Shown here: piece after piece, positions 3,818-31,026 of the stretch
Layout of the letters: each line of letters opens with the position of its first letter
Position numbering within the stretch: the stretch's first letter is position 1
NCBI GenBank assembly: GCA_944372525.1
Contig: CALVZL010000005.1
Coordinates: 4,200 to 68,199, forward strand
DNA length: 64,000 nucleotides
Origin: an uncultured Clostridia bacterium
Lineage (GTDB): Bacteria > Bacillota > Clostridia > Christensenellales > Borkfalkiaceae
Reading direction: 5' to 3'
Position numbers and translations under genes: made by a program
Notes under the pieces: model-generated
Told to the model about the DNA's origin: nothing
What the model saw: only the letters and a program-made list of their open reading frames with translations
The model's database searches: none

Positions 3818-4957
3818 TCAGCTCGCGCGATATATGAGTTTTCCGTCCCGCACGGTATAAAGAACATCGTAATTTTTCCCCAGCACCGTAAAATCCGCCG
3901 CCTTTCCTTTGGCAATGCTCCCCGTCTCCGCATCGATCTTCAACGCGCGGGCGGGATTGATCGTCGCGCTCTCCAACGCGCGTTCCACGGGCATTCCGAT
4001 CTTTTCCGCTGCGTTCTGCACCGCACGGTTCATCTTGAGAACGCTTCCGGCAAGCGTGCCGTCTGCCAAACGAGCCTGACCGTCTCGTACAAAGACGCGT
4101 TGTCCGCCCAATTCGCTCTCCCCGTCTTTCAAGCCTTTCGCCCGCATTGCATCGGTGATGAGAATGAGCCCTTCCCTTCCCTTGCATTTGCAGAGCAACC
4201 GCATTGCGGGAATCCCGACGTGAATGCCGTCCGCGATGAGTTCACAGACGAGCGAATCGTACAAAAGAGCGGCACCCGCCGTGCCGATTTCCCGATGACG
4301 AAACGGACTCTGCGCATTAAATGTATGCGTGACGTGCGTCGCGCCCGCCGCAATCGCACGGACGATATCTTCGTTGCCCGCCGCCGTATGCCCGAGGGAA
4401 ACGATCACTCCGCGCTCACGAAGATGCGCGATCAGATCTTCCGCCCCCTCTCGTTCCGGCGCAAGGGTCACGATCCGAATGCTGTTCCCGCTTGCCGCAT
4501 CGAATTCGTCGAAAAGCTCTGCCGAAGGTTCGGCAAGATAGGCCGCAGATTGCGCGCCTTTGTATGCCTCCGCAATAAACGGACCCTCGAGGTGGACGCC
4601 GCACAACCTCGCGCCCTCCCGCGGAGCACGGCAGCGATACTCCCGCACCGCGCGCAGCGCGGCGAGGATCGCCTCTTTGCTCTGCGTCATCGTCGTGGCG
4701 AGAAAGCTCGTCGTTCCCTCCGCCGCAAGCGTCTTCGCGATCGTACCGAGCGCCTCCGCGCTTCCGTCCATCGCGTCCGCTCCTCCCGCGCCGTGAATGT
4801 GCTCGTCGATAAATCCGGGACAGATCAACGCCTCTTCGGGAAGCGGGAGGATCTCCCCCTCCGCCTCTCCGACGGACAGGATTTTCTCTTCGAAAGTCAG
4901 ATCGCAGCGCCGGATCTTCCCTTCAAGAAAGACGCGCGCCCCCGAAAAAGATCTCAT
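3818..4957 (-). CDS. nagA: N-acetylglucosamine-6-phosphate deacetylase
   Basis: 379 aa. Metal-binding motif GFIDEHIHGAGGADAMDGS, plus LGHTAAG and HVTHTFNAQ, as in NagA amidohydrolases. Confidence 0.9.
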   Translation of the reverse strand: MRSFSGARVFLEGKIRRCDLTFEEKILSVGEAEGEILPLPEEALICPGFIDEHIHGAGGADAMDGSAEALGTIAKTLAAEGTTSFLATTMTQSKEAILAALRAVREYRCRAPREGARLCGVHLEGPFIAEAYKGAQSAAYLAEPSAELFDEFDAASGNSIRIVTLAPEREGAEDLIAHLRERGVIVSLGHTAAGNEDIVRAIAAGATHVTHTFNAQSPFRHREIGTAGAALLYDSLVCELIADGIHVGIPAMRLLCKCKGREGLILITDAMRAKGLKDGESELGGQRVFVRDGQARLADGTLAGSVLKMNRAVQNAAEKIGMPVERALESATINPARALKIDAETGSIAKGKAADFTVLGKNYDVLYTVRDGKLIYRAS

Positions 4958-4970
4958 TTCTCTCCCTCCT

Positions 4971-5696
4971 TCACGAAAGCAGAGAAGCTGCGTCCTCGTC
5001 GACGATCAGCGTGCAATCCGGATGCATCCGCAAAACGCTCGCGGGAAGCCGTTCGGTGATTTCTCCCTCCACCAAACCGCGTACCGCCTTTGCCTTGTTG
5101 GCACCGTTCGCCAAAACGAGAATTTTTTCCGCGTTCATGATGTTTTTCAATCCCATCGTAAACGCCCGCCGCGGGACATCTTCCTCCCGTTCAAACAGGC
5201 GGGAATTGTCTCTGATCGTGCTCTCCGCCAGTTCGACGACATGCGTCTCGCTGGAAAAGGGCGTACCCGGCTCGTTGAATGCGATATGTCCGTTGGAGCC
5301 GATCCCGAGCAGCTGAATGTCCTGCCGCAAATCGGAAAGCAGGGCGTTATACCGCGCGCACTCCGCCTCCGTGTCACCGGCAAGCCCGTTCTCGATGTGA
5401 GTGTTTTCCGGCGGAATGCCGATTCCGTCGAACAGATTCTTTTTCATGAAATAGGCGTAGCTCTGATCGTTTTCCGGACCCAGACCGGCATATTCGTCGA
5501 GATTGACCGTTCTGATCTTTTGATAGCTCGTCCCTTCCCGTTCGTGATCTTTCACCATCTTTTGGTAAAGACCAAGCGGCGTGGATCCCGTGGCAAGTCC
5601 GAGGACCGCCTGCGGATTGTTTTGTACCACAGCCTTCATGATCTCGAACGCCCTTTCGCTCAGTTCTTCATAATCTTTTGCGACAATTACTTTCAT
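4971..5696 (-). CDS. nagB: glucosamine-6-phosphate deaminase
   Basis: Motifs LGLATGSTPLGLY and LGIGSNGHIAFNEPG. The start is moved to MKVIVAKDYEE (ATG 5696-5694), which has a GGAAAGG RBS. The ORF-track start at 5738 adds 14 unlikely residues. Confidence 0.9.
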   Translation of the reverse strand: MKVIVAKDYEELSERAFEIMKAVVQNNPQAVLGLATGSTPLGLYQKMVKDHEREGTSYQKIRTVNLDEYAGLGPENDQSYAYFMKKNLFDGIGIPPENTHIENGLAGDTEAECARYNALLSDLRQDIQLLGIGSNGHIAFNEPGTPFSSETHVVELAESTIRDNSRLFEREEDVPRRAFTMGLKNIMNAEKILVLANGANKAKAVRGLVEGEITERLPASVLRMHPDCTLIVDEDAASLLS

Positions 5697-5734
5697 AACC
5701 CTTTCCTGCCGTTGCTCCCGCAGGAGACAAACGG

Positions 5735-7009
5735 TCATTCCTTTTTTCCGTGTACGGCGATGCGCGCCCCGCCCTTCAAACGGGATTCCTCGGCACAGAT
5801 CGCCATAAGGTGACTTTCGACGGAAGCCTCCAGCGAGGTTTCCGCCGAGATCTCTCCGCAGAGCACGCGATAGAGGGTTTCCACCAGCCCGACGTCTCCC
5901 CCGCCATGTCCGTATCCGCCGATCCCCAAGGAAGAAATCGAGATGCGCTCCGCCTGCGCCCCGAAGGGCTTGACAAGGATTTCATCTTTTTCCTCGTTCA
6001 GAACGATCTCCCCGTCTGTCCCGAAGAACGTCATGATGCGTCCTCCGTTTGCGGTAAACGCCGTCATGACAAGCGTCGCCTTCACGCCGTTTTCAAAGAC
6101 CATCTGCGTGAGCTGATGATCGACGACGTCGTTGTCACAGAAAAAGACGCATCGCCCGTACGGTCCGTTTGCAAGCGCTTCTTCGAGCGCCGCCCGCGTA
6201 AGCGGGCAAACATTCGTGACCTGCGTATAGGGCCAAGCCCGCTCGGGCTTTCCTTCCTCTTCCCAGCGGTCGAGGTAAATACGTTCTGCGCTGTAAGGGC
6301 AAGTCCGCCGAAAGGCGCACTCCGTGCAGCGGCGCGCACAGCCTTCGGGCGCATTGTCGGCAAGGAAATACGTAAGATCTCCGACCGAAGTCAGACTCTC
6401 GCACCGAGAACGCGCATAAAATTGCAGCAGATCGAGATCGTGACAACACTTCGCCAAAATCATGGGCGCCGTCTCCTCCTCTCTCCGCCAATTTCCGCGC
6501 ACATAGCTGTGCGCCTGATGCCAGTAGGCGACCTGCTCCAGCGCCTGGATCGCGACAAGCCGTCCGATCCTCTTCTGCGCAAGCAGCTCGGAAACCTTGA
6601 CGAAGGCCGGCGCATAGCGAAGGACATGGCAGACGAATACCTGCCTGCCCGACGCCTTTTGCGCCGCCAAAAGCTTCTCACAGGACTTTCGGTCCGAAGC
6701 GATGGGCTTTTCCAGCAGAACGTCGTAACCGAGCGCAAGCCCCGCAAGACACTGATGCACATGATCGCGATCCATCGTGGCGATCACGAGCAGGTCCGCC
6801 CGCTTTTCCCGCAAAAAGCTCTCCTCGTCGCCGAAACGGTTTTCGGTGGGAACGCCGAACCGCTCCCCGTATTTTTTCAGTCGGACGGGATCGCTGTCGC
6901 ACAGCGCGGCAACAGAAAACTTACCGTCCGATTGCGCAAACAGCGCCCCGTATGTCTCAGCTCCTCGGTTTCCGCATCCGATGATTGCGGCAGAAAACAC
7001 TTTTCCCAT
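5735..7009 (-). CDS. Gfo/Idh/MocA-family NAD(P)-dependent oxidoreductase with a Cys-rich insert
   Basis: Rossmann N-terminus MGKVFSAAIIGCGNRGAETYG and an EKP motif (LLEKPIA). The ATG at 7009 has a GAAGGAG RBS and overlaps the nanE stop by 1 nt (TAATG). The track start at 7027 is a TTG. Confidence 0.8.
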   Translation of the reverse strand: MGKVFSAAIIGCGNRGAETYGALFAQSDGKFSVAALCDSDPVRLKKYGERFGVPTENRFGDEESFLREKRADLLVIATMDRDHVHQCLAGLALGYDVLLEKPIASDRKSCEKLLAAQKASGRQVFVCHVLRYAPAFVKVSELLAQKRIGRLVAIQALEQVAYWHQAHSYVRGNWRREEETAPMILAKCCHDLDLLQFYARSRCESLTSVGDLTYFLADNAPEGCARRCTECAFRRTCPYSAERIYLDRWEEEGKPERAWPYTQVTNVCPLTRAALEEALANGPYGRCVFFCDNDVVDHQLTQMVFENGVKATLVMTAFTANGGRIMTFFGTDGEIVLNEEKDEILVKPFGAQAERISISSLGIGGYGHGGGDVGLVETLYRVLCGEISAETSLEASVESHLMAICAEESRLKGGARIAVHGKKE

Positions 7010-7797
7010 TATGCCCGCTCCTTCCAAGCCTGCGCTTGTCTCCCTTCCGCTCCGTAGAGGCTATTGATCGTCCCGTTTTCAAACGAAGCGCCGGATACAA
7101 GGTCAAACACCTTTACGTAATCGCGTGTAATATTCTGCGGACGGGTGATCGCGCCGCCGATGATGACGTGAGAAATCCCGAGCCCGAGAATCGCCTGCAA
7201 TTCGGAAAACGTGTGGATCCCGCCTTCTGCAATGATGACCGCGTTGCGGATATCGCGCTGGAGCTTTCTGCAAAACTCGATGTCCGGGATCACGATCCCC
7301 TTGGTCTGTTCCGTGTAACTGCGCATCGTGGTGGAGATGTAATCGAACCCGAGTTGCTCCGCTTCCAGCGCCTCCTCGTACGTCGCAATGTCCGCCATCA
7401 ATGCCTTATCCGTATGATCGCGCAAATAACGGACAAGCTCCTTCGTCGTGACTCCTCCCGGACGGGGGCGCATCGTCGCGTCCATGGCGATGACCGAGCA
7501 TTTGGAATGGATAAGCTTTTTTGCCTCCCGAAGTGTCGGCGTAATATAGACGGGAGAGTCGGGATAGCACCGCTTGATCAGTCCGATGATGGGGAGTTTT
7601 TGGGTCAAAACCCGATGGATCGCATTGATATCCCTCACCGTGTTTGCCCGGATCCCGACCGCACCGCCGCGTTCGGCGGCGATCGCCATTTTTGCGATGG
7701 TATTCCCGCCGTACAGCGGCTCTCCTTTCAGCGCCTGACATGATACGACCAATCCGCTCGGAATGATATCTTTCATATTATTTCCCTGCCTTTCCAT
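7009..7797 (-). CDS. nanE: N-acetylmannosamine-6-phosphate 2-epimerase
   Basis: 262 aa. LVVSCQALKGEPLYG and GAVGIRAN are typical of NanE TIM-barrel epimerases. An alternative start is MKDIIPS at 7776. Confidence 0.85.
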   Translation of the reverse strand: MERQGNNMKDIIPSGLVVSCQALKGEPLYGGNTIAKMAIAAERGGAVGIRANTVRDINAIHRVLTQKLPIIGLIKRCYPDSPVYITPTLREAKKLIHSKCSVIAMDATMRPRPGGVTTKELVRYLRDHTDKALMADIATYEEALEAEQLGFDYISTTMRSYTEQTKGIVIPDIEFCRKLQRDIRNAVIIAEGGIHTFSELQAILGLGISHVIIGGAITRPQNITRDYVKVFDLVSGASFENGTINSLYGAEGRQAQAWKERA

Positions 7798-9910: not shown

Positions 9911-11683
9911 TCACTGCAAAGAAACCGTAAACAGCGTGCTGTACAGTCCGTAGGTCCCGTTCCCCGTATCCTGCTCCGCATAGAGCAGCAGCTGCACCGT
10001 TCCGTCTCCCCTTCCCACTTCAATTATTTTGCATTCACGCTGCACCTGCCAGCCACAGTAGGTCGTACAAGAGACGTTGACCGATCCCGCAGCGATCGTC
10101 GCTTCCTCGATCGAAGCGGGCGCAGAGATCTCTTTGACAAACATTGCGCACTCCTCTGCGGCGTCTGTCGTGGCAATATTTGCCTTGGAGAAGAAGTGCG
10201 ACGGGTCGGAAAAAGTCCAGGTATTCTGCACATAGCCCCGCGCAAGATACGCCTGTGCCATTGTATTCGTCGAGTTTTCGTACGTCTCGTCCAATACGAT
10301 GTTATATTTTCGCAAAAAGGCGATCTTGGAGGCAATGTTCGTCATTCCCGTCCAGCCTCCTCCCCAGCCGGACTGTCCGTTTTCGCTCTCCTTTCCGGAC
10401 GTCGCCCCGCCGAGGAACCCCACGGGGATTTCCGGCATATATTCGCGCATGCCCTCCGCATAAGGGGCATAGAAGGTAATCGCAAACCAATGGCCTTCAA
10501 ATTCCGGATGCCGCTCCATTACTTCCTTGATGCGTTGGATGGCGCCAAGCTCGTCGACCGCCTTTGACGAACCGCCGTCGAGTTTGAGTTCGAGAATCAG
10601 AATGACATCTGTTTTGGACAGCACTTCGATCACTTCGTCGAGCGTAGGATACGTCTCCTCGTATTTCCTGCTGTAGTCTTCCAAAAAGAGCGTTCTCAGC
10701 CGCTCCAGAGGAACGGAAGCAAAATACCAACCCGAAATATTTGCAGTCCCGTTGGTTTGTGAATTGTGGCAGAGTACGATCTCGCCGTCTGCCGTGACTT
10801 GCACGTCGATCTCCACGTGCGTCGCTCCCTCGTTTGCGGAAGCAGCGACTGCCGTGAGCGAATTTTCGTTGGCATATGCCGTGATGCCGCGATGCGCCGC
10901 CACGTGCTGTGCCCGCGCAAAGCCGTTCTCCGTAAATACCGAAAGCGACTCACGAAGCACAGAGGCATCGGCAGAGACAATCCCGTAGCAACCTGCCGCG
11001 ACCGCCGCGATCCCCTCCGTTCTGTTTTCGGCATACGCCCAACAGGACTTCGCCATGGCAGAGACATAATCCGACGCAACCGCAATGTTGGGATCTGCCG
11101 CATCGAACATCAGGACATTGCAACCCGCCGCGTTTGCCTCCCCGATATATTCCCAGAGGTCATAGCGATCGGAGGGAATCGTCTGTTCCGTCAGATCGTA
11201 TATCGTATTCACGAGATAACAGACTTCATCGGAATAGAGAGTCTCGAGCACACCGATCTCCGAGGAAAGGACCATGATATCTGTGATCGTATAGGTCTCT
11301 TTCATCCATTGCACGAAGGGCTGTACCGTCGCGGCGCTCAAGCGCAGCACAGGGATAAACTTCCCCTTCAAAAAAGAATCGAATGCCGACGCAAGCGTCA
11401 TGGTGCTTTCCCCGAGCGTCACGTTCATGTCCTCGTCCGGAGTAAGCACGAGAGAGGCCGGACGCGGGCTCTGCAGATAATTCTGCGTAATCTCCGAAAA
11501 CGCCGTCGCTTCATAGACCAAAGTCGGCTCAAGCTGCAGTCCGCTGCTCCCCGCAGACACAGACGGATAATTGGTATAACTGCTGATCGCACTTGCCTGA
11601 TAAACGGTGCTGCCGCCGAATGCAAACACTGCGGTCAGCGCCGCGGCAAGGAGCACAAACATCTTTTTCGACATCTCCGTCAC
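9911..11683 (-). CDS. secreted glycerophosphodiester phosphodiesterase (GDPD) domain protein
   Basis: Signal peptide MFVLLAAALTAVFAFGG. GDPD motifs AAHRGITAYANENSL and HVEIDVQVTADGEIVLCHN lie in the central region. The N-terminal ~250 aa and the C-terminal beta-rich tail are unassigned. Confidence 0.8.
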   Translation of the reverse strand: MTEMSKKMFVLLAAALTAVFAFGGSTVYQASAISSYTNYPSVSAGSSGLQLEPTLVYEATAFSEITQNYLQSPRPASLVLTPDEDMNVTLGESTMTLASAFDSFLKGKFIPVLRLSAATVQPFVQWMKETYTITDIMVLSSEIGVLETLYSDEVCYLVNTIYDLTEQTIPSDRYDLWEYIGEANAAGCNVLMFDAADPNIAVASDYVSAMAKSCWAYAENRTEGIAAVAAGCYGIVSADASVLRESLSVFTENGFARAQHVAAHRGITAYANENSLTAVAASANEGATHVEIDVQVTADGEIVLCHNSQTNGTANISGWYFASVPLERLRTLFLEDYSRKYEETYPTLDEVIEVLSKTDVILILELKLDGGSSKAVDELGAIQRIKEVMERHPEFEGHWFAITFYAPYAEGMREYMPEIPVGFLGGATSGKESENGQSGWGGGWTGMTNIASKIAFLRKYNIVLDETYENSTNTMAQAYLARGYVQNTWTFSDPSHFFSKANIATTDAAEECAMFVKEISAPASIEEATIAAGSVNVSCTTYCGWQVQRECKIIEVGRGDGTVQLLLYAEQDTGNGTYGLYSTLFTVSLQ

Positions 11684-12280: not shown

Positions 12281-14263
12281 TTACCTCTCTTCCGTTCCCG
12301 CCTCCGCATGCATCACACGGAAAGAAATTCCGGAACGGTTATATTCTGCACGGTGGGAGGTTCTGTCCCACCGCAGGAGGATCTCGTTTCCGAGATCGTC
12401 CTCAAACAAATCGCTTCCCTCTCCGCTCACGAGAAATGTCAGCTCCCGATACCCAGCAAGATCGTTCCCCACATCCGAACACAGCTCTCCTCCGGATAAA
12501 TTGAGGGGAACGCAGCAATTCTCGCGCAAGTAGACGGGAAGATGTTCCCGCGTAAGCGGGACTTCATAAATTCCCCCGCTCAACCGCTTTCCGTCGTACA
12601 GGCCGAACCAGTTCCCTTCGGGCAGACGCACCGTCCGCGAAGGACGATAATCCTGTAACACGGGCGCAATCAGCAGCGCGTCGCCGAGCATGAATTCATC
12701 GTCTGTCCGATACGTCCACTCCTCCCCGGGAAATTCCAACGCGAGATGCCGCAGGGCGGGGATGCCCGTCTCGGAAGCCCGTTTCATCAAAAGATAATGA
12801 TAGGGAAGCAGATTATAGTGCAGAAAGAACTGACGGCGAAGCAGCGAAAGCAGATCGCCTTCCCTGCCCCCTTTCAGGTATGCCGCCATATTCCAGGGAC
12901 TTCTGTCGTTTCGCTTCCATGCCCCCGTAAAATCGCAGCGCCCGTTGGAGACAGGATCGCTGTGCCACTGCATCACGGGGACAAACGCAGCCGCCTGGAC
13001 CGCGCGCAGATACAGTTCCTCGCTGGGAAGATATCCGGAAAATCCCGCGATATCAAATCCCCAACAGCATACTCCGGACAACCCCGCCGAAAGTCCCGCC
13101 TTCAGCACGGAGGAAAACTCAGACCAAGTGGATTCCTGATCCCCCGCCCAGATCACGGAAAAACAAGGAGACCTCTGTCCGCCCGCGCGGGAAAAGACGA
13201 TGCCCCGCTCGCCCGCCAGCTCGGAAAACGCTTCGCTGTACTGCTCGCAGTAGGCGTTCTGCCCTTCGATGCCCGTCGTCCCGTCGGCAAAGCGCACCGT
13301 CTTCTCGTGCACAAATTCGCCGCCGTCCGTCTTGAATCCGTCCGCCCCGATCGTCATGAGGTAGGAGAACCTGTCAAGATACCGCGCCTTTGCCTCCGGA
13401 TTCGTAAAATCGGGAATCATGCTGCCGATGCACCAGGTGTGCGGGATCAGATAGGGAGTTCCGTCCGCGTTCGCCACACAGTCGCCTTGTGCTTTCGCGT
13501 ACTCGTTGTCTGAAAGGCACTGCGCTACGTTGCAGTCTGTCTCCAAATCGTTGCCCTGCGCATAGATGGGGACAAGCCAGAGCAAAAGTTTCATATTTTC
13601 GCCGTGGATCTTTTCGATCAGCGCCCGCGGATCCCGCCATTGCTCCGATCGGGAAAAATCCAGCTCTTCATAGGAGACCGTTTCGTCTCCTGCTTTGAAA
13701 GGACAGGAACATCCGTTCCAAAGATAGCGGGTCGTAAGATCGCTCCACGGTTCGAGGACAAAGACGCTGTGCGGAAATCCGTATTTTTGGTTCAGCGCAA
13801 GCTGTTCTTCGGCATCCGCCTGCGTTCTCCATCGGTTGGCGCTCATCCAAGCGCCGAGCACCCATTTCGGAAACAGACGGGGCATTCCGACTTTTTTCCG
13901 GAACTGTGTGAGGATTTCTTTCGGCGTCCCCTCAAAGAGATATACCTCTGCCTGCTCCCCTCTGCTTCCTTCCCAAAACGAGATGACGATCTCCCCTTCG
14001 CGGGTGAAATCAAAATCCGTTTCGACATAGGTGTCCACGTAGACGCCGAATCCGTCCGGGGTGAGGAAAAAGGGCATGGAGAGGTAGGTATATTCCCCCT
14101 GAGCAAAGCACTTTTCCCTGACACAGGCGCGTACAAATTTCCCCTTCTGATCGACGCTGTCAAACTTCTCGCCGAACCCGAAAGCGGCGCGGTAGTCCCG
14201 CCGCAACGTCAGGGAAAACCCCTCTCGCGTCTTTATGATTTCATTTATTTTGATTGTTTTCAT
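12281..14263 (-). CDS. GH31-family glycoside hydrolase (alpha-glucosidase/alpha-xylosidase-like), cytoplasmic
   Basis: GADGFKTDGGEF (nucleophile region), VIWAGDQESTW and GFDIAGFSG. The in-frame ATG at 14263 (MKTIKINE) overlaps the upstream gene's end by 23 nt. The track start at 14305 is a TTG. Confidence 0.8.
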   Translation of the reverse strand: MKTIKINEIIKTREGFSLTLRRDYRAAFGFGEKFDSVDQKGKFVRACVREKCFAQGEYTYLSMPFFLTPDGFGVYVDTYVETDFDFTREGEIVISFWEGSRGEQAEVYLFEGTPKEILTQFRKKVGMPRLFPKWVLGAWMSANRWRTQADAEEQLALNQKYGFPHSVFVLEPWSDLTTRYLWNGCSCPFKAGDETVSYEELDFSRSEQWRDPRALIEKIHGENMKLLLWLVPIYAQGNDLETDCNVAQCLSDNEYAKAQGDCVANADGTPYLIPHTWCIGSMIPDFTNPEAKARYLDRFSYLMTIGADGFKTDGGEFVHEKTVRFADGTTGIEGQNAYCEQYSEAFSELAGERGIVFSRAGGQRSPCFSVIWAGDQESTWSEFSSVLKAGLSAGLSGVCCWGFDIAGFSGYLPSEELYLRAVQAAAFVPVMQWHSDPVSNGRCDFTGAWKRNDRSPWNMAAYLKGGREGDLLSLLRRQFFLHYNLLPYHYLLMKRASETGIPALRHLALEFPGEEWTYRTDDEFMLGDALLIAPVLQDYRPSRTVRLPEGNWFGLYDGKRLSGGIYEVPLTREHLPVYLRENCCVPLNLSGGELCSDVGNDLAGYRELTFLVSGEGSDLFEDDLGNEILLRWDRTSHRAEYNRSGISFRVMHAEAGTEER

Positions 14264-15776
14264 ACAGTCCGTTTTCGTTCGTTTTGAGTATAAAATCCAT
14301 CTCAAATGTGCGATTCCAGGGCGCGCTCACGTCGATGTCGTCGACGCAGGCGGCTAGCTCCGGATAGTTTTCCCGCATATAGCGAAGCAGCTCCGTCTTC
14401 GCCGCGGCAACGCACTTTCCCCGCTCCCCGTCCAGTTCGAATACCGTGCAGCCGTTTTCGGGGACGGCGTGCTCGTCGATCCATGTCCTGGAATGCGAGC
14501 AATATCCGACATCGTCGTAATAGCGATGCAGGAGAAAATCACGGTTGCCCCGTTCATCCCCGCCCGCAAGATAGAGACAGCTCTCGCAGATGACCGTCCC
14601 GAGGGTATTGCTCGAAGTATTCCAACCCGCATAGGCGTGAATCTTCAGCAAAAGCCCCCGTTTTTGCAGCAGTCGGATCAGCTCGAGATCACTCGACGAA
14701 GGGTAGGCGATATCTGCGACCGCCACTTTCTTCCCTGCCGCCAGCGCATACTCGATCCGGTCGAGATACTCGGGCAGATTGCGTTCGATGTGATAGGGAA
14801 CCTCCCGCTGTTCCTCCGTCGCCCCGTACGGCATCTCGGAACCGACGTTTACGGCAAGAAAAATATCGCATTCGGGCAGACTGTACACCCGTACGCACCC
14901 CGCGGCGCGGATCTGGTTTTTGATCGTCGCGTCCACGGAGCGATCTTCGAATGCGGGAACGACGAACGGTCCCTTTGCGGATGCGTATCCCGCAAAGATC
15001 TTCGGTTTCACGCCCAGCCGCTCGTTGACCGCACGGCACAAAAGCGTCATGCCTACATCGTCTGCGGCGGGATACACGGGGATCTCCGACTGCAGCGCGT
15101 AGTTTCCGATCACCGCACGTACTTCTCGTTGATCCATCGAGGTAAACCCATAGGGCGCGCTGTCGTCCTGCGCCACCAGGAACCCGTCGAATATCCCTTC
15201 CCGAAACAGCTCGATCGTATGCAGAAGTACGTTGAGATTGACGCGGCGGCGCGCCGTATAATCGGCAAGCGCCTGCGGCGGAATCTTTGCTCTGACCCGT
15301 TCGTCGTCCGCCCGTTCCGCCTCTGTCAGAATCCCGAGCGTTTCTTTGTGGCGATATCTTCCGAACAGGTGGATCTCTGCGCCGCATTCCGCATAGTAGT
15401 CCGGCTCCTCGTCACTGAGCGAATAAAAGGGGCAGCGCATGATCGTCTGAAACGCGTACAGCCGAAGCGCGGGGTTTTCCCGCCTGAGCGCACGGAGCAG
15501 GTCTGCCCGAGCACAAAGTGCCTCTTCCCTCTCTCCGTGCAGACGGGAGGGAATCAGGCCTCCGTAGAGCAGCGTATCCAATGCAATCACCGCGGCATCC
15601 GCCCCCTTTGACTCTTGCTTCAGCCAGGAGGCAACCGCCTGCAGATTTGCGGGGCGTTTTTTACGCCCCATGATCGACAGAGGAGGCAGGGACAAAGAAG
15701 CGCCCGCATTCGGCATCATGGCCGGAAACCGATAGTTGCAAGGCCGCTCATCGAGCGGAAGATAGACGATACGCAT
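14241..15776 (-). CDS. DUF4127-family protein (uncharacterised), paralogue 1
   Basis: 511 aa. N-terminal MRIVYLPLDERPCNY and C-terminal YAGWNTSSNTLGT match what I recall of DUF4127. It aligns along its whole length with the ORF at 31023-32543. Confidence 0.7.
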   Translation of the reverse strand: MRIVYLPLDERPCNYRFPAMMPNAGASLSLPPLSIMGRKKRPANLQAVASWLKQESKGADAAVIALDTLLYGGLIPSRLHGEREEALCARADLLRALRRENPALRLYAFQTIMRCPFYSLSDEEPDYYAECGAEIHLFGRYRHKETLGILTEAERADDERVRAKIPPQALADYTARRRVNLNVLLHTIELFREGIFDGFLVAQDDSAPYGFTSMDQREVRAVIGNYALQSEIPVYPAADDVGMTLLCRAVNERLGVKPKIFAGYASAKGPFVVPAFEDRSVDATIKNQIRAAGCVRVYSLPECDIFLAVNVGSEMPYGATEEQREVPYHIERNLPEYLDRIEYALAAGKKVAVADIAYPSSSDLELIRLLQKRGLLLKIHAYAGWNTSSNTLGTVICESCLYLAGGDERGNRDFLLHRYYDDVGYCSHSRTWIDEHAVPENGCTVFELDGERGKCVAAAKTELLRYMRENYPELAACVDDIDVSAPWNRTFEMDFILKTNENGLYENNQNK

Positions 15777-15779
15777 CGA

Positions 15780-16676
15780 TTATCCCTTCACCGATCCCAG
15801 CGTAAGACCGTTTTTGATGTATTTGATGACATAAGGGTAAATGCACAGAATGGGGATGATGCTCAGGAGCATGGCCGCCGCCTGAATGTTGTTGACCCCC
15901 GCGACGACCTGCGGATCGTTTTTGATAATCCGCAGACGATCGATAAGGAGGTAGATATAATAGGCAAGCGGATGCGCTTCCTTCGCGGAGGCAGTGATAA
16001 AGAGCATCGCCGAACCATAGCTGTTCCATGCCCCTACGATCGAGAAGAAACAGCAGCTTCCGAGCACGGGGAGAGACATGGGGATCACGATGAAGAAAAA
16101 CATCTGGATCTCGCTCGCTCCGTCCAGCCGCGCCGCCTCTTCGATATCCGAGGGGAGCCCCTCGAAGAAGGTCTTAAAGAAGAGCAGATTGCTCACATTG
16201 CTGATCGAAATCAGTATGATCGACCAGATTTTATTGAGCAGGTTAAACTGGTACATGAGCAGATAGATCGGAATGATTCCCGCGGAAAAGAGCATCGTGA
16301 TGATGAAATAGATCATGATCCCCCCGCGGAACGGGCAATCGGATTTGGAAAGCGGATATGCCGCCATTGCTTCGACCAAGTTGGAAACTACGGTGATGAC
16401 TACGGTGATGATGACGGAGTTGAGAAAGGATCGCCAGAAATACGATGCCTCGTCCCCCGCCAAAATGTACTCGAAGGCCCACATCGTCCATCCCTTCGGG
16501 AACAGGATGAGCTGAGAATTGAATGCGCTGTTGGAAAATGCCAGCGAAAAGAAATTCATCAGCGGAAATATGATGACAATGGTGAAGATCACGAGCAGAA
16601 CGACGTTCAGCACGGAGAGAACAACATCCAGCGTACTGCTTTTGATCTTATTCGGATTTTTTTTGATCAGACGCAT
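15780..16676 (-). CDS. carbohydrate ABC transporter permease (LplC-like)
   Basis: EAA loop EAARLDGASEIQMFFFIVIP and six hydrophobic segments. The likely start is MRLIKKNPNK at 16676. Confidence 0.85.
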   Translation of the reverse strand: MRLIKKNPNKIKSSTLDVVLSVLNVVLLVIFTIVIIFPLMNFFSLAFSNSAFNSQLILFPKGWTMWAFEYILAGDEASYFWRSFLNSVIITVVITVVSNLVEAMAAYPLSKSDCPFRGGIMIYFIITMLFSAGIIPIYLLMYQFNLLNKIWSIILISISNVSNLLFFKTFFEGLPSDIEEAARLDGASEIQMFFFIVIPMSLPVLGSCCFFSIVGAWNSYGSAMLFITASAKEAHPLAYYIYLLIDRLRIIKNDPQVVAGVNNIQAAAMLLSIIPILCIYPYVIKYIKNGLTLGSVKG

Positions 16677-16686
16677 ATTCCCCTCC

Positions 16687-17751
16687 TTACCACAGACTGC
16701 GGTGCAGTGTTTTGGTCGTGATCGCATTGCCAACCAGCATGAGGATCAGCGCGATCAGTCCGTTGAACACGCCGAGTGCGGTTGCAAACGGAATGTTCGT
16801 GCGGTTGACGACGGAGATCGTATACAGATACGTATCCAACGTGATCTGCGTCGTCTCGAAGTCTGCGTTAAGCTGCATCATCGTATAAATTTGCTCGAAT
16901 CCCGCCGCCATCATTCCGCTGATGTTGAGCACCAGCATGAGGGCGATCGTCGACATGATTGCGGGGATCGTGAGATACCACGTCTTCTGAAGCTTATTCG
17001 CGCCTTCCAGCGTCGCCGATTCGTAAAAGCTCTTATCGATCGCCATGATCGCGGCATAGAACATGATGGACCCCCAGCCGGCGCCCTTCCATGCCGAAAG
17101 AAAAATGACAAAGAATTTGAACCATTCATTCTTTCCCATGAGGAAATAATCGGCATCGATGAACCCAAGCCGCACAAACAGTTCGTTGAGCGCACCGCCC
17201 TGTGAGTCGAGGATTCCCGACCAAATACCGATTACGATCGCCCAGGAGAGGAAGTTCGGCAGACAGATGATGATGAGAATGGTTTTGCTGAGCGTCTGAT
17301 TTTTCAGATCGGCAAGCTGCACCGCAATGATGATGGAAAGCGGAAAGCAGATCAGAAGCTTGATGACGTTGATGAGCAGCGTATTGCCCACGGCGGCGTA
17401 AAAGCTGTTATCCACAAAGATATCGAGATAGTTGCGGAACGTCCATTCTCCCGAAAACAAGTTGCTCAAAACCGTTCCGTGAATGAGGTTGAAATCTGCC
17501 CCTTTGAAAGAAAAGAGCAACCCGAGCATGGGAATATAGGAGAATATCAACGTGAACATTGCCGCAGGAAGAATAAACCACAACACCTTGCGGTATTTTT
17601 TCACCCGCTTCATCTGCAGCTTCCAATATTTCGGTTCTACGTAGAGCGAGTCGGTCCTCTCCTGCTTTCGCGTCGCATTCTCTGCTTCGGCGCCGACGAG
17701 GGCAGTCCCCTCTTCCGCGGCGGACGCCTGCAAAATCTTATCTTCTTTCAT
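16687..17751 (-). CDS. carbohydrate ABC transporter permease (LplB-like)
   Basis: EAA loop ESATLEGANKLQKTWYLTIP. The start at 17751 is supported by an AAGGAGG RBS. It has an unusually long, roughly 45-aa hydrophilic N-terminal extension. Confidence 0.85.
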   Translation of the reverse strand: MKEDKILQASAAEEGTALVGAEAENATRKQERTDSLYVEPKYWKLQMKRVKKYRKVLWFILPAAMFTLIFSYIPMLGLLFSFKGADFNLIHGTVLSNLFSGEWTFRNYLDIFVDNSFYAAVGNTLLINVIKLLICFPLSIIIAVQLADLKNQTLSKTILIIICLPNFLSWAIVIGIWSGILDSQGGALNELFVRLGFIDADYFLMGKNEWFKFFVIFLSAWKGAGWGSIMFYAAIMAIDKSFYESATLEGANKLQKTWYLTIPAIMSTIALMLVLNISGMMAAGFEQIYTMMQLNADFETTQITLDTYLYTISVVNRTNIPFATALGVFNGLIALILMLVGNAITTKTLHRSLW

Positions 17752-17784: not shown

Positions 17785-19590
17785 TCAGTCTTCCAGCCGC
17801 GCCAGCTTGACGTTTTTATACCAATCGGTCATCTCTTTGGAGATATCGTCCGACCAGTAATAATACGTCACGCCGCTCACCCGCGCATAAGTCTCTTTGA
17901 GAGACTGCCGTGTGATGTCAAGCGCTGCCTTTACGGTACCGCTGCGGGTATCGATCGCCGACGCGATCCCGCGCAGCGCCTTCGTCCGCGAAAGAATGTT
18001 GACGTTTGACCAATACTTGAAGGGCGGCATCATCGACATCGGATTGGTGATGATCGTCTCATCCATCGGAACGGTGACCTGCCATGCGTCGAATCCCGTC
18101 TCGCGCAGATGGAAAAGCACTTCCGCCACCACGGAGTTGGTGCCGTTGCAGTACTGTGAATTGTCGACGATCTGTTCGATATACCGATCGGTGAGTTGGA
18201 TCCAATATCCGCCTCCCGTGACCGTCTCGCCGTTGTATTCATAAGAATACGGACGCATATAGATGATCTTTTCCTTATAATCCTCGTAAGCAAGGATCTC
18301 GGTGGGATTGTCGGGATCAAATTCGGGCGCTCCTTCGGGCGCGTCGACTTTCACCCAGTGCTCGCCTTCGAGTCCGCCGTAATATTCCGCGAAATGCTCC
18401 AGTTTTTTTGCAAGGAAATCGATGATATAGACCGCATTTTCCGCCATGTAATAGGGAATGACGGTGTAGTAGGAGACCCCGTCGTCTCCGCCCTGCATGC
18501 GCGCCTTTTCCTGGACCACGGAATTGCTTGTTCCGTCGCCGCGAACCCGCGTATTCCAGACGATCGCCTCGTCGTGCACCGTCTGATAATCGTTGGAAAT
18601 GCCCGCCACCTGAGCCAGTTTTCCCTGTGTGACAATGGCGTTGACAAGAGGCGTCACCCACCAGTAAGACAAATAGACGCAGGAGTTGTTTTCGCTGGCA
18701 AAATCAGAGCAGATCTTATCCGACGAACTGTTCTGCCAGGAATCGGAAAGGATCTTCTGCTGTTTGAGATTGTACATGTATTCTGTATATAAATCGTAGC
18801 TTTCGTCGTAGATGTAGAGCTGAATATTTCCGTCATCGTCCAGCCCGAATTCAAGCGGGCAGTCAAACGCGGACAGGATGGGATTGACGCGCACGCTGTT
18901 GCTTCCGCCCAGCCCGAACGCATGATAATTGCTGTTCGTCGCGCCGTATTTTTCCTGAAGTTTGGTGAGCGCGTCCGTCACTTCGCCGAGCGTCTCCGGG
19001 ACCTTCACGCTTCCGTCTTCGTTGACGTAGCCGATCTCTTTGAGGTGATTGACATTCCACACAAGCGCCGAATCTTCCATGACGCAATATCCGAAATCCG
19101 GAATGGCATAGATGCCCGTCTTCCCGGAGTCGTCGGTGTATTTTACCGCATCCCAGCCGTAATCCATGAGATCGATGAGCTCATAGAGCTTTCTCCCGGA
19201 CTCGGTGTTTTGAAGAAGCTCGGTCAGATCGAGAAATGCCCCCATTTCGAGATAGGGCGTATATTGCGCCGAGTCGAGTTTCATGATGTGATATTCCTCA
19301 CGCGTCGTCAAAATTCCGTTGACTTCGTTATCGGCGGTGCTCTCGCTCAGCTCGCGATAATTGACGTGGTATCCCGTCGTTTCTTCAATGATTTTTGCGG
19401 TATCCTGCGTTTCGAGGTTTCCGAATCCGGAAATGCCGGTTGCGGGATAGATGGCGTTGATTTCGATGGGGTTGCTCAGATCAACGTTCCAGTTGATCTG
19501 ATAGTTTTCCTCGCCGACGCATCCTGCCAGGGAGCCGACTGCAGAACTCAACATTATCCCCGCAAGCAAAAGCGTTCCTGCTCTTTTCAC
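17785..19590 (-). CDS. extracellular solute-binding lipoprotein of the ABC importer (LplA-like, large)
   Basis: Lipobox SLAGC. At 601 aa, its size and position upstream of two LplB/LplC-type permeases fit family-1 sugar-binding proteins. Confidence 0.8.
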   Translation of the reverse strand: MKRAGTLLLAGIMLSSAVGSLAGCVGEENYQINWNVDLSNPIEINAIYPATGISGFGNLETQDTAKIIEETTGYHVNYRELSESTADNEVNGILTTREEYHIMKLDSAQYTPYLEMGAFLDLTELLQNTESGRKLYELIDLMDYGWDAVKYTDDSGKTGIYAIPDFGYCVMEDSALVWNVNHLKEIGYVNEDGSVKVPETLGEVTDALTKLQEKYGATNSNYHAFGLGGSNSVRVNPILSAFDCPLEFGLDDDGNIQLYIYDESYDLYTEYMYNLKQQKILSDSWQNSSSDKICSDFASENNSCVYLSYWWVTPLVNAIVTQGKLAQVAGISNDYQTVHDEAIVWNTRVRGDGTSNSVVQEKARMQGGDDGVSYYTVIPYYMAENAVYIIDFLAKKLEHFAEYYGGLEGEHWVKVDAPEGAPEFDPDNPTEILAYEDYKEKIIYMRPYSYEYNGETVTGGGYWIQLTDRYIEQIVDNSQYCNGTNSVVAEVLFHLRETGFDAWQVTVPMDETIITNPMSMMPPFKYWSNVNILSRTKALRGIASAIDTRSGTVKAALDITRQSLKETYARVSGVTYYYWSDDISKEMTDWYKNVKLARLED

Positions 19591-24504: not shown

Positions 24505-25338
24505 CTAAACGAGTTTGCGCGCGGTTGCGACATTGCCCTTTGCGATGAACTCGTCGAAACGGTCCTTGTCACACATATGTAACCCCGTGCAAAGCACGTC
24601 GACGAAGAAGAGCTGCATGAGTTTGCTCGTCATCGCACCAGGCTGAACGGGAGATTCCATCGGAACCGAAGAGAGCACCAGATCGGAAAACCGCGTCAGC
24701 GGCGAACGTTCGTAACAAGTAATGACGATGATCTTCATCCCGCAGGAGCGCGCGAGCTGCGCCGCCTCGATCACGTCCTTCGTCCCGCCGGAGACGCTGA
24801 ACACGATCATGAGATCGGATTCGTTCCGCGAAGAGATCAAAATATTCTGAAAATGAATATCCTGCTCGCAATAGGTCAGGATCCCCATCTTCATCAGGCG
24901 GTTGTGCAATTCCAGCGCGGCGAGATAGGAATGCCCCACGCCGCAGCAGCAGACCGTTCTGGCGGAGAGAATATAGTCGAACGCCTGCTGCAGCTTTGCT
25001 TCCGTCAGGCGTTTTCTGCACAAATCGAGCGCCTTCTGATAGTCCGCAATGATGTTTCCGACATATTCGATCCCGCTTTCTTCTTCCTGCATGGTTCCGC
25101 CGATCATGCTTTGGGCCAGATTGAGACGAAATTCCTGATATCCGTTGAACCCGAGGGAGCGGCAGAACCGGAGCACCGTCGCTTCCGCAACGCCCACCTC
25201 TTCGGCAAGCTGAGTGATCGACATGTAGATGATATGTTTATGATCTGCGGTTTCGAAATACTCAAGAATTTTTCGCTGCGACTTGGTAATCTTCCCCGCT
25301 TTCAGGCTCTCGATCCTACCCGCCAAAGTATCTTTCAT
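24505..25338 (-). CDS. MurR/RpiR-family transcriptional regulator (HTH + SIS sugar-phosphate sensor domain)
   Basis: N-terminal HTH_6-like segment (ITQLAEEVGVAEATVLRFCRSLGFNGYQEF) and a SIS domain (VCCCGVGHSYLAALEL...IVFSVSGGTKD). Confidence 0.85.
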   Translation of the reverse strand: MKDTLAGRIESLKAGKITKSQRKILEYFETADHKHIIYMSITQLAEEVGVAEATVLRFCRSLGFNGYQEFRLNLAQSMIGGTMQEEESGIEYVGNIIADYQKALDLCRKRLTEAKLQQAFDYILSARTVCCCGVGHSYLAALELHNRLMKMGILTYCEQDIHFQNILISSRNESDLMIVFSVSGGTKDVIEAAQLARSCGMKIIVITCYERSPLTRFSDLVLSSVPMESPVQPGAMTSKLMQLFFVDVLCTGLHMCDKDRFDEFIAKGNVATARKLV

Positions 25339-25420: not shown

Positions 25421-26263
25421 GTCATTGTCTGAAAGATTTGTTCGCCCTAAGCTCCGCTCCCCGCTCTCTTTCAGCCTTCCGAACGCGCTTCCGATCTTTC
25501 CTCCCGCCGCAAGATAGCGTGCCGCCGCACGCTGCAGAGAGGTTTCCTGCGGAAAAGAATCGGGAGAAGTTTTTCCTTCGAACAGCCAGAAAAGAAAGCC
25601 GCCGTCCTCCGGAGAAACGCGAATGACGGAAAAGCGCGCCTGAAAACGCAGAATACGCGACCGAGGCGGAAGAAGCTCTTTCAGCGCAGGCGAAAGCAGC
25701 CAGGAATCGCAGGTATAGGGCGCTTTCTTCCATCGGCCGAAGCTCTTTTCCTCCGAAAAGAAGGCGCGGGCACGGGCGAGCGAGTCATCGACCGCCCCGT
25801 CGGACAGATCGGCGTCGGAGGGGATATGCACGGCGATCGCGGGCGCTCCCTCCTTGTCCTCGGCAAGTTCGTATTCAAGCGTTCCCAACCGAAACAGACT
25901 GAGAGAAAGCTGTCTTCCCGTCCAAAATCCGCGATCGAATCCCCATTCGCCGAAGCGAACGCGATACTCCTTCGCAAAGCGGGAAAAACACTTCATCGTG
26001 TCGAAAAACACTTCCTCCGCGATCCCGCGGCGCTCATAGATCTCCCTCGAAAGCAACGCGGCGCGCAACATGACGGCGAGCGTCACCAGCCCCCTTCCCG
26101 TATCGTCCGCCTCCTCCAATTCGCGCGCGGCTGCGGCATAGTCTCTGCCGCACAGATGGACGCAGAGCGCCTCCCGCTTCTTTGCGGAAAGCTTTCCGAA
26201 TGTCAGACGTTTTTCCAGTTCTCCGTCCAATGCGATGCGCGAACAGAGTTCTTCGAACGTCAT
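25406..26263 (-). CDS. hypothetical cytoplasmic protein (possibly the two-domain GNAT-like acyltransferase family; weak)
   Basis: 285 aa. The start overlaps the GH31 stop (26260-26263). The block GEWGFDRGFWTGRQLSLSLFRLGTLEYE faintly recalls the N-acyltransferase N-terminal domain family. This is not verified. Confidence 0.45.
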   Translation of the reverse strand: MTFEELCSRIALDGELEKRLTFGKLSAKKREALCVHLCGRDYAAAARELEEADDTGRGLVTLAVMLRAALLSREIYERRGIAEEVFFDTMKCFSRFAKEYRVRFGEWGFDRGFWTGRQLSLSLFRLGTLEYELAEDKEGAPAIAVHIPSDADLSDGAVDDSLARARAFFSEEKSFGRWKKAPYTCDSWLLSPALKELLPPRSRILRFQARFSVIRVSPEDGGFLFWLFEGKTSPDSFPQETSLQRAAARYLAAGGKIGSAFGRLKESGERSLGRTNLSDNDLTTF

Positions 26264-30151: not shown

Positions 30152-31026
30152 TTGAATGTTACCCCGCTTTTTCCGAATTCAGTCCCAAGATCCAGTCCGA
30201 GCGCGCCGAAAATCCCGGCACGCGGTCCGAGACGGGCAAACGCCACATCCTCTTTCTTTTCGATCATAGAGAAAAACATATTTTCCGATTGCGCAACTCC
30301 GCCGCCCAGCAGAATTTTCTGCGGCGAAAGCGCCGTACGAATATCGTCGAGCAGGAGATTGAGGCGGCGGGCAAACGCGGCGAAGATCTCCTTTGTCCAC
30401 TCCTCCCCCGCGGCATGGCGTTCGAACAGCTCCCTGCAACTCTGCAGTGCATGAAATTTCCTCCTGCCGCTGCGCAGAAGCGCGGTCGCCGAAAGATAGC
30501 TCTCGGCACAGCCCCGTTTTCCGCAGCTGCACCGTCTGCCCCCGGGAACCAGGCAGAGATGTCCCCAGCGCGCTCCGTCGAAGGCTTTGCCCCGTACGAT
30601 TTTTCCGCCCGCCATGCTCGCGCCGCCGACGCCCGTCCCGAACGTGAGCATGGTCACGTCGGTCAGTTCGGGATAAAACTTCAGTTCTCCCAAAAGAGCG
30701 CATACGGCGTCGTTTTCCGCGCGGCAGGGCGTGCGATAACGCGTCCCGACGCTGCCTGCAAGGTCCGCGCCCGTCCATCCGCGCAGATTGTCCGTCGCAT
30801 AGACGCAGACACCGCGCGCGGGATCGATGTTTCCTGCAGAGGAAATGCCGATGAATCGGACGGATTCCGTCATCAGGACGTCGATCAGGGCAAAGAGCTG
30901 CGAAAAGATCGCCTCCCTGCCCTCCTGTCCGCGAGTCGGAAGAGAGAACTCCCGCTCAATTTGATCCCCGTCCGCGCGCACGCCCTTAATCGTCGTCCCG
31001 CCGATATCCACGCCGATCTTTTTCAT
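30148..31026 (-). CDS. ROK-family sugar kinase (GlcNAc or ManNAc kinase candidate)
   Basis: ATP-binding MKKIGVDIGGTTIKG and the ROK zinc motif CSCGKRGCAESY. Confidence 0.85.
   Translation of the reverse strand: MKKIGVDIGGTTIKGVRADGDQIEREFSLPTRGQEGREAIFSQLFALIDVLMTESVRFIGISSAGNIDPARGVCVYATDNLRGWTGADLAGSVGTRYRTPCRAENDAVCALLGELKFYPELTDVTMLTFGTGVGGASMAGGKIVRGKAFDGARWGHLCLVPGGRRCSCGKRGCAESYLSATALLRSGRRKFHALQSCRELFERHAAGEEWTKEIFAAFARRLNLLLDDIRTALSPQKILLGGGVAQSENMFFSMIEKKEDVAFARLGPRAGIFGALGLDLGTEFGKSGVTFK

Follow-up and report, generated by a model that had tools for sequence, protein, structure and literature searches.

In Firmicutes, the canonical nan cluster encodes a SAT-type ATP-binding cassette (ABC) or phosphotransferase system (PTS) importer, the sialate lyase NanA, the ROK-type kinase NanK, the epimerase NanE, the RpiR-type regulator NanR and the Gfo/Idh/MocA proteins NanOx/NanY. 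Virtually every wall teichoic acid has N-acetylmannosamine (ManNAc) in its linkage unit, and the sugar is also a constituent of many capsules and secondary wall polymers. Here we describe DUF4127-1, a gene in a 64,000-nucleotide (nt) stretch of DNA (the window) from an uncultured Clostridia bacterium (contig CALVZL010000005.1), whose product belongs to a family, DUF4127, that is already catalogued in Pfam and is uncharacterised. Clusters that harbour DUF4127 share with the firmicute nan clusters a ROK kinase, NanE, RpiR, uptake through a CUT1-type ABC system or a PTS, an accessory esterase and Gfo/Idh/MocA proteins. They differ in that they have neither NanA nor a sialidase, that DUF4127 stands at the ManNAc-producing position, and that β-N-acetylhexosaminidases, GHL10, GDPD and NAGPA are its neighbours. 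The operon-embedded branch of DUF4127 is tied to ManNAc catabolism, through NanE, ROK and RpiR, without a sialate lyase, and DUF4127 is probably a carbohydrate-active enzyme that supplies ManNAc, or ManNAc-6-phosphate (ManNAc-6-P), to ROK and NanE. By analogy, the pathway would be like a nan cluster in which the lyase has been replaced by a non-homologous enzyme acting on another source of ManNAc.

The large open reading frames (ORFs) in this part of the window all lie on the minus strand. A first-pass annotation of the DNA had placed a 511-aa DUF4127 protein at 14241-15776; the protein is real and full length, but it is encoded on the minus strand, which gives one uninterrupted frame, whereas the plus-strand reading of the interval has many stops. 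The protein begins with MRIVYLPLDERPCNY and contains YAGWNTSSNTLGT. Its residues 3-495 match positions 1-488 of the 489 in the PF13552 profile hidden Markov model with 491.2 bits, and the second copy in the window, DUF4127-2, scores 476.8 bits (gathering score, 27 bits; E-values in Table 1). The stop codon of the upstream permease (TAA, 15782-15780) is followed by a 3-nt gap and by the ATG of DUF4127-1 at 15776, ahead of which lies the Shine-Dalgarno-like AAGGGA. Downstream, the in-frame ATG of a glycoside hydrolase (GH) family 31 gene at 14263 and the stop codon of DUF4127-1 (14243-14241) give an overlap of 23 nt. The tight junctions reported earlier with the permease and the GH31 gene are thus read directly from the sequence, and they recur in orthologous loci, where the permease-to-DUF4127 spacing is mostly 1-4 nt and the DUF4127-to-GH31 spacing ranges from -52 to +11 nt. 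Around the second copy, the spacing between the SGNH gene and DUF4127-2 is mostly -4 to +5 nt in the orthologous loci, and a 4-nt overlap between DUF4127-2 and the ROK gene is frequent. No signal peptide was found in DUF4127-1, DUF4127-2 or the GH31 protein (GH31a). The family is enzyme-like, and DUF4127-1 represents it as an intact and conserved cytoplasmic protein, translationally coupled between an importer and a cytoplasmic α-glucosidase.

A representative search returned 1940 DUF4127 clusters at 50% identity. In an alignment of 101 diverse sequences, 13 positions are invariant (D9, R11, R78, R114, R177, D205, D239, E277, D355, W385, N386, N390 and R489), about 35 further positions are conserved in at least 90%, and no Lys is invariant. 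Both window copies keep all 13 invariant residues, together with the family signatures PLDERP after strand 1, QDD and YAGWNTxxNTLG. The carboxylates D9, D204/205, D239, E277 and D355 and the aromatics W385, Y382, Y425 and W487 are conserved at the level of sequence. The Cys of PLDERPCN had been included in a proposed Asp/Glu/Cys/Asn cluster and is not essential, given that the 101 sequences have C in 89, V in 9, A in 2 and Y in 1, with V or I in secreted members. Judged from the alignment, the Asp/Arg/Asn/aromatic core, held also in the secreted members, is enzyme-like. In the AlphaFold2 model of DUF4127-1 (predicted local distance difference test 96, predicted TM-score 0.94), strands and helices alternate, residues 128-192 form a long helical insert, the C-terminal part is made up of helical and hairpin elements, and the conserved residues are placed at, or just past, the C-terminal strand ends.

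The statement that DUF4127 has no assigned function holds for the papers, NCBIfam models and PDB relatives that were searched. A literature search found no paper naming DUF4127 or PF13552, no NCBIfam model matches the two copies, and the PDB gave only a chance match with the single sequence (E 0.49) and 0 matches with the 101-sequence profile. Foldseek detected no convincing structural relative of the model (TM ≤0.22), residues 256-405 gave only generic Rossmann-like matches in the structure search, and the ESM Atlas returned DUF4127 clusters only. Several known families were considered and rejected. NamZ (GH171, DUF1343) is an exo-β-N-acetylmuramidase, a recently recognised exo-N-acetylhexosaminidase family in cell-wall sugar salvage, and its likeness to DUF4127 is proposed as a functional analogy only. 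The two differ in profile and in structure: hhalign of the 101 DUF4127 sequences with 11 NamZ sequences gave a probability of 0.07% (E 0.68), and NamZ is absent from the best 50 structural matches. Identity with NanA or the dihydrodipicolinate synthase (DHDPS) family was discarded, PF13552 being the sole Pfam match and there being no invariant Lys for a Schiff base. The block I GDS serine and the block V Asp/His triad of SGNH hydrolases were not found in DUF4127, and it is a member of neither GH1 nor GH4.

The genomic neighbourhood was studied in 79 loci from reference genomes, with ORFs labelled by similarity to the window proteins and to recurrent neighbours. Thirty-eight of these loci come from close relatives (uncultured gut Clostridia, including metagenome-assembled genomes, MAGs, labelled Christensenellaceae), and 41 are distant (Paenibacillus, Lachnospiraceae, Acholeplasma, Haloplasma and Oscillospiraceae). 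Beside DUF4127, the distant loci carry ABC permeases in 36 cases, NanE in 31, PF12831 in 29, a binding protein in 24, RpiR in 23, ROK in 20, GHL10 in 12, SGNH and GH20C in 7 each, and GH84 and Gfo/Idh/MocA in 5 each. Across the family, DUF4127 thus keeps company with an importer (ABC or PTS), NanE, ROK, RpiR and one oxidoreductase. No DHDPS-like or other lyase-like family was found among the annotated recurrent neighbour clusters, which comprise every cluster seen in at least 5 loci. Fusions involve some of the same families: a ROK domain is joined to DUF4127 in 5 of the 10 long forms examined, other partners are NanE, a GDSL/SGNH esterase (P0194), GHL10, an alpha/beta hydrolase and a PF12831 FAD-type oxidoreductase, and one protein joins GNAT, GHL10 and DUF4127. 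In one metagenomic locus, the partners of DUF4127 are an AGE-family 2-epimerase and an esterase of the AXE1 type.

Clusters of this kind, nan-like in their CUT1 ABC importer or PTS, ROK, NanE, RpiR, esterases and Gfo/Idh/MocA and devoid of NanA, raise the question of whether DUF4127 stands in for N-acetylneuraminate lyase without being homologous to it, or acts as a MurQ-like etherase, so that ManNAc(-6-P) would come from sialic acid or N-acetylmuramic acid. In keeping with a replacement, no DHDPS-family gene (PF00701; DapA or NanA) was found in the genome of this bacterium, at 88.7% completeness. We regard this origin of ManNAc as highly improbable. The window contains no sialidase and none is found among the recurrent neighbours, and most carriers are Paenibacillus and Lachnospiraceae of soil or plant litter; neither a peptidoglycan amidase nor AnmK is among the recurrent neighbours of DUF4127. 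Moreover, no invariant Lys is available to form a Schiff base, and, given the secreted members, an aldolase or etherase acting on free monosaccharides is unlikely. As a separate observation, the missing DapA may reflect lysine/diaminopimelate auxotrophy or an assembly gap.

Plasmid operons of Carnobacterium sp. 17-4 and Enterococcus faecalis bear on the substrate. Both have the order NanE-HAD (Cof-type phosphatase)-DUF4127-PTS IIC, with an RpiR regulator, and contain no GH1, GH4 or other glycosidase and no kinase. Both IIC proteins belong to the lactose/cellobiose family (TIGR00410, 361 and 379 bits; cut-off, 236), the next-best models being cellobiose and N,N'-diacetylchitobiose IIC. β-Linked disaccharides enter the cell through PTS transporters of the Lac family, which add a phosphate to O6 of the non-reducing sugar. 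Given that GH1 and GH4 are missing from these operons, DUF4127 is the sole candidate for cleavage of the phospho-disaccharide, and the sugar arriving at NanE has to be the phosphorylated non-reducing one, which implies a 6-phospho-β-ManNAc-(1→x)-sugar. In these homologues, as distinct from the window genes, DUF4127 fills the 6-phospho-β-glycosidase slot of a disaccharide-uptake operon, and resembles the GH1 and GH4 enzymes of lactose/cellobiose-family PTS operons, such as the chitobiose chb system, in being the sole cleaving candidate beside a cellobiose/chitobiose-like IIC. Two other plasmids differ in composition: in Deinococcus, DUF4127 lies with NagZ, a binding protein, GH20, permeases and PF12831, and in Priestia the order is AXE-DUF4127-ROK-ManA-PTS (Glc family)-NanE-RpiR. 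The ManA of the latter operon, on the Priestia megaterium plasmid NZ_CP065336.1, is a class I mannose-6-phosphate isomerase, which a pure ManNAc route fails to explain.

We tentatively propose that DUF4127-1 and DUF4127-2 are cofactor-free glycan-cleaving enzymes, probably β-N-acetylmannosaminidases, that free ManNAc or ManNAc-6-P; we infer which substrate is used, that the mechanism is hydrolytic and which polymer is attacked. DUF4127 would then be the entry step of a nan-like pathway without a sialate lyase. At the cell surface, the GDPD, the NAGPA-type phosphodiester glycosidase and the GH26-like lipoprotein would cut a phosphodiester-containing glycopolymer, most likely a teichoic-acid-like or secondary cell-wall polymer of other bacteria, and the ABC system would take the fragments into the cell. 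There, the SGNH esterase, the GH20C β-hexosaminidase and the two GH31 α-glucosidases would trim them, and DUF4127 would, most likely, hydrolyse the non-reducing β-ManNAc-(1→4)-linkage to N-acetylhexosamine (HexNAc) or Glc, freeing ManNAc, or ManNAc-6-P in PTS systems. ROK would phosphorylate ManNAc, NanE would epimerise the product to N-acetylglucosamine-6-phosphate (GlcNAc-6-P), and NagA and NagB would finish the route. The exo-β-GlcNAc-ases that recur beside DUF4127 (GH20C, GH84 and NagZ) fit alternating HexNAc/ManNAc polymers. A search of 8.4 million papers with any spelling of mannosaminidase gave no matches, and reviews covering wall polymers and pyruvylation are silent about degrading enzymes; with no mannosaminidase in the literature searched, the step is one without a known enzyme.

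At the level of genomes, 401 were sampled from the phylum, taking as true NanE the matches with E < 1e-27. DUF4127 was found in 62 of them (~16%), NanE in 42 and both in 22; NanE is thus present in 22/62 DUF4127-positive genomes (35%) and in 20/339 DUF4127-negative ones (5.9%), figures that are descriptive only, given that related genomes are non-independent. Paenibacillus, Acholeplasma, Deinococcus and Thermus have DUF4127 as well, and so do plasmids of Enterococcus, Carnobacterium and Priestia. Eighteen DUF4127 loci were fetched from genomes without NanE. Their DUF4127 proteins have 545-670 aa, carry a signal peptide or membrane anchor and are encoded outside sugar operons. In a shape search of the Atlas, one kind of cluster is 93% SLH-bearing and another is 33% dockerin-bearing. 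All the aligned secreted members keep D9, R11, R78, D204, D205, D239, D355, Y382, N386, N390, D422, Y425, W487 and R489; R114 is kept in 11/12 and W385 in 10/12, and E10, E123/124, R176/177 and E277 are variable. The existence of extracellular members argues for a reaction independent of cytoplasmic co-substrates such as ATP or phosphate. Among the activities suggested by the first-pass annotation, an amino-sugar hydrolase is the best fit. Glycoside phosphorylases are strictly intracellular and use phosphate as co-substrate, and for the family as a whole phosphorylase and other activities dependent on a cytoplasmic cofactor or co-substrate are disfavoured by the secreted, SLH and dockerin members. 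In four loci from genomes of one family (L093, L101, L104 and L107), a protein of ~230-255 aa without a Pfam match is encoded directly upstream of the secreted DUF4127.

One secreted member (locus L110, G047:C1:53000-72500) lies in the order CsaB-like pyruvyl transferase-...-TagA(GT26)-Cu_amine_oxidN1-DUF5693-x-DUF4127, and Wzz-like and CapD-like N-termini are encoded downstream of it; another is found as Acyl_transf_3-CE4-DUF4127-SLH protein. The TagA product is β-ManNAc-(1→4)-GlcNAc, the linkage unit common to teichoic acids and pyruvylated wall polymers, and the same disaccharide is the repeating backbone in the P. alvei and B. anthracis polymers (PMC7831098). This context brings up the idea that DUF4127 strips a non-sugar decoration from ManNAc, such as the 4,6-pyruvate ketal of Pyr-ManNAc in SLH-binding wall polymers, to give ManNAc and pyruvate. 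Invariant Arg residues could bind a carboxylate, the family is present in Paenibacillus, Thermus and Deinococcus, the wall polymer of P. alvei is Pyr-β-ManNAc-(1→4)-GlcNAc (PMC7831098), and a 2019 review of pyruvylation contains no ketal-cleaving enzyme. The SLH-fused members, and the secreted member near CsaB and TagA, would fit as well. However, CsaB or TagA occurs in only 1/18 loci of secreted members and an SLH protein in 3/18, and since SLH is found in 344/401 sampled genomes, its co-occurrence with DUF4127 is uninformative; no SLH domain was found in the genome of this bacterium at 88.7% completeness. In addition, a 4,6-ketal blocks O6, which clashes with the O6 phosphorylation expected in lactose/cellobiose-type PTS operons, and a separate enzyme cleaving β-ManNAc would still be missing. 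Removal of a decoration of this kind seems rather improbable.

Some observations weigh against a β-N-acetylmannosaminidase. Forty of the 62 DUF4127-positive genomes have no NanE, so that the link with ManNAc is shown only for the cytoplasmic, operon-embedded branch. A hydrolase of neutral sugars would not usually have five invariant Arg and many Asp, which could just as well serve to bind phosphate, a carboxylate or a metal. Furthermore, simple hydrolysis leaves the oxidoreductase unexplained, and PF12831 or Gfo/Idh/MocA adjoins DUF4127 in 34/41 distant loci. These two families never occur together (29 loci have the one, 5 the other and 7 neither), which suggests non-orthologous displacement of one redox step. 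Finally, the fusion with PF12831 reaches eukaryotic algae. Fusions of this type, of ~1000-1150 aa (P0273-P0277), have been recorded in Triparma verrucosa, Bigelowiella natans and others, where contamination of the gene sets is possible. PF12831 itself has no solved relative by sequence, and a literature search on it gave nothing relevant.

The oxidoreductases could mean that DUF4127 is a lyase or hydratase acting in partnership with them. In such a route, an imported HexNAc glycoside or 1,6-anhydro-HexNAc would first be oxidised at C3 (or C4) by PF12831 or Gfo/Idh/MocA. Elimination and re-hydration by DUF4127 would follow, with re-protonation of C2 giving the manno form. Such a sequence would resemble levoglucosan or 3-keto-glycoside routes, and would account for NanE even with a gluco-configured substrate. 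The adjacency and mutual exclusivity of the two families argue for it, as do the nesting of the Gfo-linked Paenibacillus clade within the PF12831-linked clades, the fusions in bacteria and algae, and the weak resemblance of the window Gfo/Idh/MocA enzyme to levoglucosan dehydrogenase and DgpA. The GHL10 neighbours point the same way, being of the family of Cwp19, which is reported as a lytic transglycosylase (PMC6016235). Nevertheless, there is no oxidoreductase partner in the PTS-type operons, in the copy-2 operon or for the secreted, SLH and dockerin members, and no genuine PF12831 member was found in the genome of this bacterium. A Listeria RpiR-ROK-PTS-HAD-oxidoreductase-NanE operon required for growth on ManNAc has no DUF4127 (PMC10667646), which indicates that the oxidoreductase-NanE pairing can stand alone and that the oxidoreductase may be a separate accessory step. 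Taken together, we consider a lyase or hydratase unlikely. By analogy with NanOx and NanA, the oxidoreductase may instead prepare a variant form of the substrate.

The Asp/Arg-rich invariant core would also suit a metal-dependent phosphoesterase acting on phosphorylated ManNAc fragments, for example phosphodiester remnants of teichoic acid. The window locus is centred on phosphodiester chemistry, through GDPD and NAGPA, and GDPDs of the GlpQ type are known teichoicases (PMC7086022). However, GDPD and NAGPA are only lineage-specific neighbours: GH31a, GDPD and NAGPA lie beside DUF4127 in just 1, 1 and 2 of the 41 distant loci, so that the wiring to these enzymes is specific to this lineage. The PTS-type operons already hold a HAD phosphatase next to DUF4127, and a phosphoesterase does not account for a disaccharide-type PTS operon in which nothing but DUF4127 could do the cleaving. 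This function is, in our opinion, quite improbable.

The two copies in the window share 266 of 502 positions in BLASTP (53%), in agreement with the first estimate that about half of the residues are identical to those of the copy at 31023-32543. In a quick maximum-likelihood tree of 79 sequences (Shimodaira-Hasegawa-like approximate likelihood ratio test, SH-aLRT, support only), copy 1 falls in an 18-row clade (support 100) and copy 2 in a 20-row clade (support 96). The two form a joint 38-row clade with support 100, apart from the PF12831-linked sequences, so that the duplication took place within this group of gut Clostridia, each copy then staying in its own operon. In the close relatives, copy 1 is conserved in the arrangement permease-DUF4127-GH31a-GDPD-GH26-NanE-Gfo, and copy 2 in NAGPA-SGNH-DUF4127-ROK-GH20C-GH31b-GNAT-RpiR. 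The two clades have 141 columns that are identical at ≥90% conservation and differ by 13 fixed substitutions, among which F17Y, L74I, I75V, A237S, D421E, C426M and T490M lie next to core residues. Such a pattern would fit the same chemistry on slightly different substrates, and the two copies may act on two slightly different aglycones or decorations. The earlier proposal of a recurrent step on two related intermediates is therefore reasonable, given that the copies fall into separate, well-supported clades, each with a gene context of its own; the wiring to GH31, GDPD and NAGPA is lineage-specific.

This analysis adds to what was known of DUF4127 the assignment of the PTS IIC proteins to the lactose/cellobiose family, the mutual exclusivity of two oxidoreductase families, a quantified association with NanE and its limits, a secreted branch whose neighbours include TagA, CsaB and SLH genes, evidence against homology with NamZ and the dating of the paralogue split. 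More speculatively than the activity itself, DUF4127 might found a new GH family with a fold unlike that of any characterised carbohydrate-active enzyme. It would include the first β-N-acetylmannosaminidase, digesting the β-ManNAc-(1→4)-GlcNAc of wall teichoic acids and SLH-binding secondary cell-wall polymers in bacteria and, via the PF12831 fusions, in some bacterivorous algae, with secreted members remodelling the producer's own wall polymer. Since the candidate substrates are defined compounds accessible by synthesis, the hypothesis lends itself to direct testing. An assigned activity would fill a gap in the turnover of cell-wall glycopolymers and in gut cross-feeding, would probably define a new CAZy family, and would provide a tool enzyme for dissecting teichoic acids and the polymers that anchor S-layers.

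The features of the locus are collected in Table 1. The surface or secreted set also includes a giant lipoprotein and the GH26-like lipoprotein, with a lipobox or signal peptide, and the cytoplasmic set a NAT_N/GNAT_C protein. The genome has 1.375 Mb and contains exactly two DUF4127 genes.

Table 1. Positions in the window of the two DUF4127 genes and of the genes around them.
Feature	Coordinates	Strand	Remarks
DUF4127-1 (DUF4127 paralogue 1)	15776..14241	minus	511 aa, cytoplasmic; PF13552 E 4e-147; without signal peptide
DUF4127-2 (paralogue 2)	32543..31023	minus	506 aa, cytoplasmic; PF13552 E 9e-143; own clade, SH-aLRT 96
ABC permease 2	15780..16733	minus	BPD_transp_1; conserved neighbour; stop 3 nt before DUF4127-1
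ABC permease 1	16687..17751	minus	BPD_transp_1
601-aa lipoprotein, presumed substrate-binding protein of the importer	17785..19590	minus	N-terminal lipobox; conserved place before the permeases; no Pfam match
GH31a, cytoplasmic	12281..14263	minus	GH31 domains; start overlaps DUF4127-1 stop by 23 nt
194-aa lipoprotein, two internally similar halves	11690-12274	minus	between GH31a and GDPD; lipobox or signal peptide
GDPD phosphodiesterase, secreted	9911..11683	minus	GDPD E 6e-19; signal peptide
NanE, ManNAc-6-phosphate 2-epimerase	7009..7797	minus	NF002231 264 bits (cut-off 189)
Gfo/Idh/MocA oxidoreductase, overlaps nanE	5735..7027	minus	remote matches to sugar-oxidising Gfo/Idh/MocA enzymes
nagA and nagB, GlcNAc-6-phosphate exit route	3818..5738	minus	labels of the first-pass annotation, not confirmed by family search; orthologues recur in related loci
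NAGPA-type phosphodiester glycosidase lipoprotein	33672..35096	minus	PF09992 E 1e-23; lipobox
SGNH/GxDLY esterase, cytoplasmic, upstream of copy 2	32534..33655	minus	Lipase_GDSL_3 and GxDLY
ROK sugar kinase, follows copy 2 with a 4-nt overlap	30148..31026	minus	ROK E 5e-41; weakly similar to NanK
Exo-β-N-acetylhexosaminidase, GH20C type, cytoplasmic	28277..30151	minus	Glyco_H_20C_C; S. pneumoniae GH20C match 2e-124
GH31b, MalA-like α-glucosidase, cytoplasmic	26260..28263	minus	Pfam E 2.7e-112; NCBIfam MalA-like model below cut-off
RpiR-type regulator	24505..25338	minus	HTH_6 and SIS

A contig labelled Parasutterella excrementihominis (Pseudomonadota; CAVJMJ010000016.1, locus L020) carries a complete operon of the Clostridia type, NAGPA-SGNH-DUF4127-ROK-GH20C-GH31-GNAT-RpiR, and its DUF4127 nests among those of Clostridia MAGs in the tree; mis-binning is a more likely explanation than transfer. 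The closest solved relative of GH31a is the cycloalternan-forming enzyme Lmo2446 of Listeria (E 3.5e-111). GH31a is nearest to this protein and to the cycloalternan-degrading GH31 enzymes (E 3.5e-111 to 1e-85), and not to maltases, which hints at a specificity for α-1,3/α-1,6 glucosides.

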